This document shows, one piece after another, positions 13,026 to 28,982 of a DNA stretch of 32,000 bases. Below the pieces are notes generated by a model that searched no databases, had not been told where the DNA came from, and saw only the letters and a program-made list of their open reading frames with translations. Made by a program: the position numbers and the translations under genes. The DNA is from Saccharolobus solfataricus (lineage in GTDB: Archaea; Thermoproteota; Thermoprotei_A; Sulfolobales; Sulfolobaceae). The stretch spans positions 960,001-992,000 of the forward strand of contig NZ_LT549890.1 in NCBI RefSeq assembly GCF_900079115.1. Direction: 5' to 3'. Positions within the stretch are counted from its first letter, which is position 1. The number at the start of each line of letters is the position of its first letter.

Positions 13026-13325
13026 ATGAAAGTTGTAAAGTACAATTTGAAGGCTAAGATTGAAAGAGCTGGGAGAGATCCTATAACCATAGAGAGGAAA
13101 TTCAGAAAATTAGTTAATGCAAGAAAGTTTATAGATGAAGTAGTAGGAGAAGATCAAGTAAAGTGTACTCCATTAAGTAAGTCTGAGACTTTAATTACTA
13201 AGCAGTGTGAAGGTGATCAAGTAAAGTACTTCTTCGAAATTACTATAGAGAGGATCAAGAAACCAAAGAAGGAGGAAAAGCCGGAGAAAGAGGAAAAGAA
13301 ACAAGAACAAGGAACTACTCCTTAA
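13026..13325 (+). CDS. hypothetical protein with K/E-rich tail
   Basis: 99-aa ORF with tail 'KKPKKEEKPEKEEKKQEQGTTP'. No family recognised. Confidence 0.4.
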   Translation: MKVVKYNLKAKIERAGRDPITIERKFRKLVNARKFIDEVVGEDQVKCTPLSKSETLITKQCEGDQVKYFFEITIERIKKPKKEEKPEKEEKKQEQGTTP

Positions 13326-13507
13326 TCACCGTAATGTACTCTAGTTTCTCTTAACCATTTCCTAAAGCAAGATTTAGAACAAAATAAATAAGCCTTATTT
13401 TTATGTACTAAAATAAACTCAGCGTACTCTACCTCTTTCCCACACTGAGTACAAGTACCAAAATTAGGAATAGATAAAATTTGTCTTATAGACTTGAATT
13501 CAGCCAT
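13322..13507 (-). CDS. TRASH/YHS-type metal-binding zinc-ribbon protein (61 aa)
   Basis: C-x2-C-x20-C-x3-C pattern ('CTQCGKEV...KAYLFCSKSCFRKW'), the TRASH/YHS signature. Lies 25 nt downstream of, and co-directional with, wHTH regulator R1. Confidence 0.65.
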   Translation of the reverse strand: MAEFKSIRQILSIPNFGTCTQCGKEVEYAEFILVHKNKAYLFCSKSCFRKWLRETRVHYGD

Positions 13508-13532: not shown

Positions 13533-13916
13533 TTAAATGACTATTTCTAATGCGGTGTGCTTCTGTAATGCCTCTTTAACAGTTCCTGCAAGTTTTTCTA
13601 GATCTGCCTCCAATTTCCTATATAATCTCTCTTTTTCTACCCAGTATATGTAGTTTGGTCTTCCTTTTCTTTCCTCTTTTTCAGCTGGAGCCTTTTCCCT
13701 CTGTATTAAGCCCTTGTCAAGTAAGTTATTTAGTGCCTTGCTTATAGACGCTTTAGTTACATTTAATTTCTGGGAGAGATCATCAGTAGTCATCTTTCCA
13801 TTTTGTAGTAGTATGTGTAATACTTCTACATCGCTTTTAGATAGACCGTACATGAATGCTATGAAATCGTGTATATCTACTTCCCTTCCATCAGGGAACC
13901 TTACTTTTTCAGCCAT
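13533..13916 (-). CDS. small winged-helix transcription regulator (MarR/TrmB/Lrs14-like), paralogue R1
   Basis: HTH 'TTDDLSQKLNVTKASISKALNNLLDKGLI' followed by wing 'KGRPNYIYW'. Clearly paralogous to the ORFs at 17325..17702 and 18178..18513. Confidence 0.75.
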   Translation of the reverse strand: MAEKVRFPDGREVDIHDFIAFMYGLSKSDVEVLHILLQNGKMTTDDLSQKLNVTKASISKALNNLLDKGLIQREKAPAEKEERKGRPNYIYWVEKERLYRKLEADLEKLAGTVKEALQKHTALEIVI

Positions 13917-17246: not shown

Positions 17247-17324
17247 AATTTCCAAAAAATCACGTTAACTTTTTTTGCTAAAATAAGGAAAGATTTATAT
17301 ATACGTTTTTTCTGATATATTCAT

Positions 17325-17702
17325 ATGCAAGTAGAGAATATAAGAGTTAGGCTCCCATCTGGAAAAGAAGTTGGATTAGTAGACGCACTAAATTTCTGCT
17401 ATGATATTTCAGATACGGACTTCCAGGTGTTAAAGACATTACTAAATAGTGGACCAAAGACTGAAGACGAACTAGCTGAAATGCTTCATTTAAGTAAGGC
17501 TTCAATAAATAGATCGGTAAATAAGTTAGTTTCCTTGGGTTTTGTAGATAGGGTAAAGGACTCATCATCGAAGGGAGGTAGGCCAAGATATATATACAAA
17601 CCTATAGATGCGGATAGAATTACCACGAAGATTTCAAATGATTTCAAATATTGTGCTGACTTATTCTCTAGCGTGATACCACAAGAATTGAAAGAAAAGT
17701 AA
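17325..17702 (+). CDS. small winged-helix transcription regulator, paralogue R2 (Cys25/Cys110)
   Basis: 'VRLPSGKEV...[17 protein letters not shown]...[29 protein letters not shown]...GGRPRYIYK' aligns along its length with R1 and R3. TTTATATATA box at about 17295-17304. Confidence 0.75.
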
Positions 17703-17713
17703 GTAAATTTATT

Positions 17714-17881
17714 TTAATCTTCGTTTTTCTTACATTTAAACGTAAATCTATCTGGTTCTCTTAAAAAAGCTAACATACATATTTCGGTGTCGAAATAATA
17801 CTTAATGTTACTATGATCAGTAGTATAGGGTGTGCATTCAGCTTCAAATAGCCTATTGCATACTGGGCATACGACCTTCAT
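17714..17881 (-). CDS. unlisted small ORF: YHS/TRASH-like zinc-ribbon protein (55 aa)
   Basis: Hand translation of the minus strand gives MKVVCPVCNRLFEAECTPYTTDHSNIKYYFDTEICMLAFLREPDRFTFKCKKNED*. 'CPVC...YYF(D)TEIC..F..P..F' follows the YHS/TRASH pattern, with the third Cys replaced by Asp. It falls below the 60-aa cut-off of the ORF track. Confidence 0.55.
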   Translation of the reverse strand: MKVVCPVCNRLFEAECTPYTTDHSNIKYYFDTEICMLAFLREPDRFTFKCKKNED

Positions 17882-17928
17882 GCTGTCAAAATAAAATTTT
17901 TTATCTTTATAACGTTAATTCTTTGACT

Positions 17929-18195
17929 ATGATTGAAGAAATGGATTTAACTCCGCTTGAGTGCCCGGAGCCCTTTATGAAGGTAGTTGCTAAACTAATG
18001 AAGATAGAAAATGGAGAACTTAAGATCAGGTATAAGGATCCTAAGTGCAGAGAAATGTTACTAGAGGCTATGAAGTTAATGAATTGTAAGGTTCTTGAGG
18101 ATTCGCAAAATAATGGAGTATTTTTCATGCATATTAAAAAAGAAAGTGGTAGTTCTGAAAAACCTAAAAAAATTGAACTAACTGGAGGTTGCTGA
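17929..18195 (+). CDS. TusA-fold sulfur-carrier-like protein with C-terminal ...TGGC arm (88 aa)
   Basis: ORF track 17830..18195; the ATG at 17929 gives MIEEMDLTPLECPEPFMKV.... It aligns with the canonical TusA in this window (LDARGMYCPGPVLET...), sharing CPxP, 'G E(L/V)L.I...DP' and '...IK(K/R)'. An extra tail 'ESGSSEKPKKIELTGGC' ends the protein. Confidence 0.6.
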   Translation: MIEEMDLTPLECPEPFMKVVAKLMKIENGELKIRYKDPKCREMLLEAMKLMNCKVLEDSQNNGVFFMHIKKESGSSEKPKKIELTGGC

Positions 18196-18513
18196 CAATA
18201 TTTTAGAAGCGCAGTTAGTCAAGTCTTGTTTTATTTTAGTTTCAGCATTATGTATTACCGCATATAGATATTTAGGTCTTCCTATTCTCTTACCTTCTTC
18301 TCCATCTTTATTCCTGACTATTAACCCTATTTCTATTAATTTCTTCAGACTATTTTCAACGGTAGTTTTGCTGAGTTTCATTATCGAAGCTAACTCTTCC
18401 GCGGAAATCGGTCTGTTAAGCTCAACTAATTTAAATAGACACTCGACATCAGTATCTGATATTTTATAACAACATCTTATTACCTCTTTACTTTCTGAAA
18501 GTTTTAAACTCAT
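18178..18513 (-). CDS. small winged-helix transcription regulator, paralogue R3 (Cys14/15/25/101)
   Basis: 'RCCYKISDTDVECLFKLV...SAEELASIMKLSKTTVENSLKKLIEIGLI...IGRPKYLYA' is paralogous to R1 and R2. Co-directional with, and 32 nt downstream of, the CoA-binding protein gene. Confidence 0.75.
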   Translation of the reverse strand: MSLKLSESKEVIRCCYKISDTDVECLFKLVELNRPISAEELASIMKLSKTTVENSLKKLIEIGLIVRNKDGEEGKRIGRPKYLYAVIHNAETKIKQDLTNCASKILSATSS

Positions 18514-18545
18514 AAACTTATTTTATCTTTTCTAGTATTAAAACT

Positions 18546-19010
18546 TTAACTATTTTTTAAGGATGATACTGGGGGAGGATTATTTACATTAAATATTTTT
18601 TTCATATATTCCTTGTACATACACCTATCTTGGATAACTACAAGTCCAGCTTTTCTGGCCTTTTCCGCAGCCTCATCATTTCTAATACCTTCCTGCATCC
18701 ATATTACCTTCACATCGCCAACCTTTTTCACTCTCTCCAAAACTTGATCAACAATTTTAGGTACTTCATTTGATGGTCTAAATATCTCAACAATTTCTAC
18801 CTTATCTGGTACGTCGAGAATTGAGGGATAAGACTTTTTACCTAATATTTCACTCGCGGATGGATTTACTGGGATGACATTATAACCATGATCCATTAAA
18901 AACTTAGGCACTTGAAAAGCTGCCTTGGATGGGTCTTTGGAGAAACCAACAGTTGCAATATTTTTATATTTAAGTAAAACTTCCTTTATGACTTCCTCTT
19001 CGTTCTCCAT
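18546..19010 (-). CDS. CoA-binding domain protein (YccU/YneT-like)
   Basis: 'IATVGFSKDPSKAAFQVPKFLMDHGYNVIPVNP...VEIVEIFRPSNEVP...KVIWMQEGIRNDEA...GLVVIQDRC' is the typical CoA-binding Rossmann-like pattern. Confidence 0.75.
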   Translation of the reverse strand: MENEEEVIKEVLLKYKNIATVGFSKDPSKAAFQVPKFLMDHGYNVIPVNPSASEILGKKSYPSILDVPDKVEIVEIFRPSNEVPKIVDQVLERVKKVGDVKVIWMQEGIRNDEAAEKARKAGLVVIQDRCMYKEYMKKIFNVNNPPPVSSLKNS

Positions 19011-19117
19011 AAAATTTACTAGTATTTTTTGGCTTTTAAATTTTTCTATATCAATTTAATGTTTTTCGAGGATTTGAGAGAAATATTTTTATATTAAGTT
19101 AACTAAAGCATTTAGGA

Positions 19118-28739: not shown

Positions 28740-28982
28740 GTGTCTCAAGAGGTTAGGATTGCGAAAACGTTAGATGCTAGGGGTATGTATTGCCCTGGTC
28801 CAGTTTTGGAGACAGCTAAGGCAATTAAACAAATAAATGTTGGTGAGGTTTTAGAAATATTGGCTACTGATCCAGCAGCTAAGCCAGATATTGAGGCTTG
28901 GGCTAGAAGGACTGGAAATCAAATAGTAGATATACAACAACAAGGAGGAGTAACGAGAATATTAATTAAAAGAGTGAAATAA
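28740..28982 (+). CDS. tusA: TusA sulfur-carrier protein
   Basis: 80 aa. Contains 'LDARGMYCPGPVLET', the canonical TusA Cys-Pro-x-Pro motif. GTG start with GGTGA 6 nt upstream. Confidence 0.9.
   Translation: MSQEVRIAKTLDARGMYCPGPVLETAKAIKQINVGEVLEILATDPAAKPDIEAWARRTGNQIVDIQQQGGVTRILIKRVK

Follow-up and report, generated by a model that had tools for sequence, protein, structure and literature searches.

The window analyzed here, a 32,000-nucleotide stretch of the Saccharolobus solfataricus genome (contig NZ_LT549890.1, positions 960,001 to 992,000), encodes three small winged helix-turn-helix (wHTH) regulators, R1, R2 and R3, two of which (R2 and R3) lie in the sHdr/LbpA sulfur island and share a pair of cysteines. 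Our analysis identifies this pair as the documented disulfide pair of the Lrs14 family, which spans the N-terminal helix H0 and the long C-terminal dimerization helix H4; both the observation and the general redox idea have already been published. With moderate confidence, we favor the explanation that the cysteines form a disulfide staple of ancestral origin, perhaps tunable by redox state, and that the Lrs14 proteins carrying it are autoregulated and part of a cassette conserved in the sulfur island. The feature itself is real but known, and the one element that may be new is the synteny of the cassette around R2 and R3 inside the island, which is worth testing at the bench. The three regulator genes are the following:

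13533-13916, minus strand: R1, 127 amino acids, Lrs14-family paralogue of the AbfR2 type (cluster 2)
17325-17702, plus strand: R2, 125 amino acids, very probably Lrs14 itself (cluster 4)
18178-18513, minus strand: R3, 111 amino acids, Sto12a-type Lrs14 paralogue (cluster 5)

Lrs14-family identity and the cysteine pair

A preliminary description of this DNA had presented R1, R2 and R3 as small paralogous wHTH proteins that align over their whole length, and this holds: open reading frames are present at these coordinates, TrmB/MarR wHTH models of Pfam match all three products, and the end-to-end alignment gives 33% (R2) and 30% (R3) identity to R1. All three also score above the curated cutoff (90 bits) of NF040939, the NCBIfam model of the Lrs14 family (arCOG02242), with 118.6 bits for R1, 134.0 bits for R2 and 124.5 bits for R3. 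The genome, a single 3.03-Mb contig, carries six members of the family, compared with the three described earlier. Among 47 Sulfolobaceae species genomes, the set in which the cassette was also counted, an R2-type gene is found in 47/47 and an R3-type gene in 44/47. The best match of R1 in the PDB is 6CMV (AbfR2, Saci_1223; 9.4e-22), and R3 matches 2D1H (ST1889/Sto12a of Sulfurisphaera tokodaii) at 7.1e-37.

A 2024 review divides the family into five clusters, with AbfR2 in cluster 2, Lrs14 (SSO1108) and saci_0133 in cluster 4, and Sto12a in cluster 5 (PMC11841832). SSO1108 is the gene named Lrs14 (PMC3518317, PMC11841832), SSO1101 is the homologue of saci_1223 (PMC10302679), and SSO1111 is called an "acetyl-CoA synthetase" in the literature. 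The gene order in the window (R1, six genes, R2, the sulfur-carrier gene TusA2, R3 and a CoA-binding gene) matches the SSO numbering exactly, and from this numbering we infer that R1 is SSO1101, R3 is SSO1110 and the CoA-binding gene is SSO1111. R2 is very probably Lrs14 (SSO1108), the founder of the family, or a strain variant of it, given that the gene order fits the SSO numbering, that the protein passes the Lrs14 model and that an operator-like palindrome lies at its own promoter; statements in the review and in other papers form a further basis for this assignment. The S. tokodaii gene that occupies the R3 slot beside TusA2 encodes a product identical to the 2D1H sequence at every aligned residue. 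The crystallized protein is therefore the island copy, and R3 is the positional orthologue of Sto12a. Lrs14 of Saccharolobus solfataricus was reportedly the subject of Napoli 1999 and of Bell and Jackson 2000, and the structure of Sto12a/ST1889 (PDB 2D1H) is said to come from Shinkai 2007.

The two cysteines that R2 and R3 were described as sharing are located exactly as stated, at C25 (17397-17399) and C110 (17652-17654) in R2 and at C15 (18469-18471) and C101 (18211-18213) in R3. Conservation among orthologues had been proposed as a check, and in a multiple alignment of homologues drawn from a 5.8-billion-protein set the pair is invariant on both sides: C25 is present in 67/67 and C110 in 66/66 R2 orthologues, and both C15 and C101 are present in 29/29 R3 orthologues. 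This conservation exceeds chance by far. Two further cysteines of R3 had been overlooked, namely, C14, which directly precedes C15 and is likewise invariant (29/29), and C25, which is mostly kept (24/29). R3 thus has the CC doublet in H0 and the cysteine in H4 that mark the Sto12a type (cluster 5). R1 carries Met and Leu in the two columns (M22 and L109), as reported, and its designation as a nonredox relative agrees with its clade: none of 45 R1 orthologues has a cysteine at either column, and 41 of them have no cysteine at all.

The pair has a structural precedent. In the Sto12a crystal, Cys16 in H0 and Cys100 in H4 form an intrachain disulfide, and Cys15 and Cys15' form an interchain disulfide (PMC11841832). 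According to the same review, the H0-H4 pair is kept in clusters 3, 4 and 5, cluster 1 has the H4 cysteine only, and cluster 2 has neither; our alignment of the six paralogues of this genome reproduces the published pattern exactly. The distribution of the pair has been described and a redox role suggested in published work (PMC11841832, PMC9426492).

The fold agrees with this assignment. The AlphaFold (AF2) model of R2, with a predicted local distance difference test (pLDDT) score of 91.6, shows five helices (residues 18-26, 30-42, 47-54, 58-71 and 96-122), with two strands (74-78 and 89-93) preceding the last of them; this is the H0-H1-H2-H3-S1-S2-H4 topology of Lrs14 proteins with its long C-terminal dimerization helix. 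C25 falls in H0 (18-26) and C110 in H4 (96-122). The top Foldseek matches of the model were 3R0A (first), 6CMV and 2D1H, with template modeling (TM) scores of 0.75-0.83 normalized to target length, and superposition on 2D1H gave a root mean square deviation of 1.9 over 100 columns. The proximity of C25 and C110 in R2 is taken from the homology to 2D1H.

We considered whether the pair is tied to the sHdr system and rejected such a link, given that the pair occurs both in families without detected sHdrB1 and in the nucleoid protein Sul14a. In our sample, sHdrB1 was found in 8/8 Sulfolobaceae and in 0/73 other genomes, and both cysteines are present in 16 of 18 single-copy Lrs14-like sequences from five other crenarchaeal families of the same GTDB order. 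Within the S. solfataricus genome itself, an unlinked paralogue about 930 kb away (genome positions 43,944-44,333) also carries the pair; this protein of 129 amino acids, 48% identical to R2, is the orthologue of Sul14a (sire_1948). Sul14a binds AT-rich DNA across the genome as a nucleoid protein and is apparently essential (PMC12847825). The pair is therefore not an sHdr-specific persulfide-sensor invention and, since it is an old family trait common to a nucleoid protein, its presence alone does not identify a persulfide sensor, which corrects the premise of the preliminary description. The distribution in sequence alignments indicates that the pair is ancestral and was later lost in clusters 1 and 2. 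The orthologues in S. acidocaldarius retain the cysteines even though their genes are dispersed. Given that protein disulfides abound in the cytoplasm of crenarchaea (PMC3177088) and that the pair is ancestral, a structural staple is the default reading.

The conserved cassette and its promoters

R2 and R3 belong to a gene cassette with the following neighbors, to which the R1-associated gene is added:

17714-17881, minus strand: TRASH2, a 55-amino-acid YHS/TRASH-like cysteine-rich protein (Pfam YHS, 1.1e-04, below the cutoff)
17929-18195, plus strand: TusA2, a second TusA-family sulfur carrier, between R2 and R3 (Pfam TusA, 1.1e-11)
18546-19010, minus strand: a CoA-binding-domain protein, directly upstream of R3 on the same strand (Pfam CoA_binding_2, 3.6e-38)
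13322-13507, minus strand: TRASH1, a small TRASH-domain protein directly 3' of R1 (Pfam Arc_trans_TRASH, 5.6e-05, below the curated cutoff)

The cassette runs through orf164, orf116 and R2 in the forward direction, TRASH2 in reverse, TusA2 forward and R3 in reverse (with the CoA-binding gene behind it, also in reverse), and then lplA-lipS1-lipS2. It is found inside the sHdr/LbpA island in Saccharolobus, in three Metallosphaera species including M. javensis and M. yellowstonensis, and in Acidianus brierleyi, A. copahuensis, A. manzaensis, Ca. Aramenus, Sulfuracidifex and Sulfurisphaera tokodaii. R2-type and R3-type genes both lie within 1 kb of TusA2 in 27/47 genomes from six genera, and 34/47 genomes have an R2-type gene no more than ~2 kb from TusA2. 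The R3-type gene adjoins the CoA-binding gene in 30/44 genomes, TusA2 in 27/44, and one or the other in 37/44. TRASH2, convergent with R2 and divergent from TusA2 across a 47-bp gap, keeps its position in 12 of the related loci that were mapped. TusA2 ends in GGC, and its counterparts in S. tokodaii and S. acidocaldarius retain the C-terminal cysteine; canonical TusA is encoded separately, after dsrE3A, at 28740-28982. We found no literature report of this cassette, nor of a link of Lrs14 to sHdr or TusA.

There are exceptions to this arrangement. In S. acidocaldarius, the R2 orthologue lies 2 kb from tusA2, but R3, hdr and the CoA-binding gene are scattered. In Stygiolobus and the genus g46, only an R2-type gene occupies the island slot. 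In the genus g42 (locus L032, genome G081), a compact sHdr/LbpA island passes directly from orf116 to TusA2 and lplA, and the TRASH2 homologue is displaced; this island lacks R2 and R3, and so the island can exist without both regulators. Loci L020, L022 and L023 (Sulfurisphaera, Stygiolobus and g46) contain two cluster-4 (R2-type) paralogues ~19 kb apart, the more divergent of which (57-60% identity to R2) holds the island slot.

Several features of the gene arrangement stand apart from the cassette counts. The convergent genes TusA2 and R3 overlap by 18 nucleotides at their 3' ends (18178-18195), and the junction is kept tight in 27 species, with gaps of -11 to +16 nucleotides between the aligned coding regions, so that antisense interplay is possible. 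The pairing of the R3-type gene with the CoA-binding gene is as conserved as the link to TusA2 and is kept in genera g42 and g49, where TusA2 lies elsewhere; a link to the CoA thiol is a possible hint from this pairing. Each TRASH/YHS-like gene adjoins an Lrs14 paralogue, TRASH1 on the same strand as R1 and TRASH2 convergent with R2, and the R1-TRASH1 pair recurs in loci L019 and L027.

For the regulatory DNA, we compared ~90 nucleotides upstream of 13 island genes in up to 25 loci and scanned all loci for the palindrome of the R2 promoter. The B recognition element (BRE) and TATA box of R2 are accompanied by a palindrome:

17275-17303, plus strand: R2 promoter, degenerate palindrome and BRE/TATA, ~22 nucleotides before the ATG

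The palindrome TTGCT-N6-AGGAA (17275-17290) abuts the BRE/TATA element GATTTATATATA (17292-17303). Its perfect form, TTGCT-N6-AGCAA, occurs in seven related loci (Metallosphaera loci, A. brierleyi, Ca. Aramenus-type loci and A. manzaensis), once per 20-kb locus and always at the R2 promoter, and no second significant copy was found in the window. The restriction of the palindrome to the promoter of R2 itself fits the published autoregulation of Lrs14. The R2 promoter is conserved nearly base for base across genera, although the R2 proteins are only 65-75% identical. R3 has its own BRE/TATA at 18536-18547 on the minus strand, in a conserved promoter block. An island-wide operator was considered and rejected, given that the R2 palindrome occurs only at the R2 promoter and that the other promoters share only BRE/TATA-like cores; across the 13 genes and up to 25 loci, no common motif was seen beyond these TATA-like cores. 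A separate near-palindrome, ATTAAGTTAAC, lies at 19093-19103, after the TATA box of the lplA-lipS operon and before its ATG. This element is perfect as GTTAA-N-TTAAC in the Sulfuracidifex locus (L027) and in L019, and it was not seen at the corresponding position in Metallosphaera or Sulfurisphaera.

Structural staple or thiol sensor

We hypothesized a mechanism that starts from the Sto12a disulfide known from the literature, from which we infer that in R2 and R3, too, the pair joins H0 to H4 through an intrachain disulfide in vivo. In R3, the extra Cys14 could additionally connect the H0 helices of both subunits. In the disulfide-rich cytoplasm, the main role of the pair would most likely be that of a staple that makes the dimer more rigid, and the thiol-disulfide state could thereby, at least potentially, influence DNA binding. 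R2 is predicted to repress its own promoter through the palindrome beside the BRE/TATA element, in keeping with the autoregulation of Lrs14 that is likewise known from earlier work. R2 and R3, as fixed parts of the island cassette, probably act locally on R2, TRASH2, TusA2, R3 and the CoA-binding gene. Our own contribution to this explanation consists of the family identity, the cysteine conservation, the fold, the synteny and the promoter conservation. Several points weigh against a mainly structural role. The strict invariance of the pair over long distances and its place beside a sulfur carrier would fit sensing as well, and a thiol switch has been proven for OxsR, which belongs to the arCOG of R2 and R3 (PMC9426492). 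Clusters 1 and 2 could dispense with a staple of purely structural function. In addition, the disulfides of Sto12a were seen in recombinant protein and could have arisen during purification.

The preliminary description had proposed that R2 and R3 are thiol- or persulfide-sensing regulators of the island, and this proposal survives in part. Their candidacy as thiol sensors in general is consistent with the invariance of the pair, its location on H0 and H4, the disulfide in the Sto12a crystal, the presence of OxsR in the arCOG and the membership of both genes in the island cassette; the island-specific part of the proposal is weakened by the occurrence of the pair in Sul14a and in the five families without detected sHdrB1.

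We considered, as a tentative alternative that we regard as rather unlikely, that the pair acts as a persulfide or sulfane-sulfur switch. TusA2 or a DsrE3A/TusA relay might pass sulfur to R2 and/or R3 to form a tri- or tetrasulfide or an S-thiosulfonate on the pair, and the altered DNA binding would derepress sHdr/LbpA island genes, a functional parallel to SqrR, BigR and sHdrR. The bridging of an N-terminal and a C-terminal helix by two cysteines is SqrR-like, and the pair is invariant in orthologues. The R2-TRASH2-TusA2-R3 cassette lies in the island in 27/47 species of six genera, with the 3' overlap of TusA2 and R3 kept, and no other regulator gene was recognized in the island. In addition, papers on sHdr and on the sulfur metabolism of the Sulfolobales name no regulator (PMC6067878, PMC8551704). 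However, the pair predates sHdr, occurs without it and is present in a nucleoid protein; the g42 island lacks both regulators; the S. acidocaldarius orthologues are unlinked to hdr; and no common operator was found at the island promoters. Lrs14 proteins are also abundant and of low DNA-binding specificity (PMC11841832). Expression of Sto12a likewise does not favor such a switch: in S. tokodaii grown on sulfur, its gene STK_18890 changed 1.56-fold (p = 0.11, not significant). The adjacent tusA2 changed 1.8-fold (p = 0.059) (PMC11323534 supplement). In a related form of this idea, which is doubtful, the whole cassette would serve the archaeal sHdr/LbpA island as its dedicated module for sensing sulfane sulfur or thiols. 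In that speculative form, the C-terminal cysteine arm of TusA2, CoA persulfide or both would transfer sulfur to the H0-H4 pair of the two Lrs14-type dimers and thereby switch their DNA binding. If a sensing module of this kind were true, R2 and R3 would be the first persulfide-responsive transcription factors in archaea, with a fold unrelated to that of the bacterial ones.

A general sensor of oxidative stress, in which oxidation would set the rigidity of the dimers of the abundant Lrs14 proteins and reshape chromatin and global transcription, along the lines suggested for the family and demonstrated for OxsR, is unlikely. The position in the sulfur island would then be incidental or would result from shared thiol metabolism. 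A change in oxidative state is part of the model in PMC11841832, the pair is common to Sul14a, 3R0A is the top fold match of R2, and C14 of R3 aligns with the cysteine of MM_1094 (3R0A) that has been equated with C24 of OxsR (PMC9426492). On the other hand, R2 has F24 and no OxsR-equivalent cysteine, and the tight, conserved cassette would be left unexplained. In S. acidocaldarius, saci_0133 and saci_1242, assigned as the orthologues of R2 and R3, respectively, by genome position only, differ in their published responses: saci_0133 responds most to stationary phase and starvation, and saci_1242 shows little transcriptional response to stress, as measured by transcript levels only (PMC11841832), which argues against a stress sensor in the case of R3. 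Sensing mediated by partners, in which the TRASH proteins (metal or sulfur) and the CoA-binding protein (CoA or CoA persulfide) would modulate R1-R3 and the pair would not signal, is highly improbable: the R1-TRASH1 and R2-TRASH2 pairs do recur, and the CoA-binding gene neighbors R3 in 30/44 species, some of them in genera that lack the TusA2 linkage, but the TRASH matches fall below the Pfam cutoffs and gene adjacency alone is weak evidence.

The regulation of sHdr/LbpA in archaea is not addressed in PMC6067878 or PMC8551704, and the conserved cassette that surrounds a TusA paralogue in the sulfur island encodes both Lrs14, very probably R2, and the crystallized Sto12a. R2 and R3 are concrete and cheap candidates for bench work, given that purified proteins, a crystal structure and S. 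acidocaldarius deletion strains exist.

Comparison with known systems

The bacterial persulfide sensors SqrR, BigR and sHdrR (ArsR-SmtB family) and CstR (CsoR family) work with two cysteines, one on an N-terminal and one on a C-terminal helix. In SqrR, BigR and sHdrR, the sensing cysteines lie in alpha2 and alpha5, and exposure to sulfane sulfur creates a tri- or tetrasulfide bridge by which the DNA is released. These sensors are small dimeric repressors whose genes lie beside sulfur-oxidation genes, and what R2 and R3 have in common with them is this general idea. They differ in belonging to other families and in having cysteine positions that are not homologous to the R2/R3 pair; R2 and R3 are of the Lrs14/TrmB type by family models. 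We rejected membership in the ArsR type, given that HTH_5 (PF01022) barely passes its cutoff of 22 bits (22.8 for R2 and 22.7 for R3), compared with 55.4 and 34.6 bits, respectively, for TrmB and with the still higher scores of the Lrs14 model. Membership in the CstR/CsoR type was rejected because the fold is a winged helix and not the all-helical CsoR/DUF156 fold; no CsoR-type model appeared among the Pfam matches listed (the best 25 for R1 and R3, and all 24 for R2).

OxsR of Haloferax volcanii, a TrmB-family protein, shares the single-domain wHTH architecture and the arCOG (arCOG02242) with R2 and R3 (PMC9426492). The cysteine with which it senses is located at the dimer interface, in its N-terminal helix, and C14 of R3 would correspond to it by way of MM_1094. 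OxsR has a single cysteine and senses hypochlorite, whereas the H0-H4 pair of R2 and R3 is a different, intrachain pair, and R2 has Phe at the OxsR-equivalent position.

The closest relatives are Sto12a and Lrs14. R3 is ~70% identical to Sto12a (HMMER alignment, judged by eye) and occupies the same slot adjacent to TusA2, and its C14, C15 and C101 correspond to C15, C16 and C100 of Sto12a. R3 differs in carrying a fourth cysteine, C25, that is absent from Sto12a, and the R3 gene of Saccharolobus also follows the CoA-binding gene, which is located elsewhere in S. tokodaii. For Lrs14 (SSO1108), no difference from the R2 protein was noted, the identity having been derived from gene order and published statements rather than from a direct sequence comparison, and the palindrome at the R2 promoter fits the published autoregulation of Lrs14.

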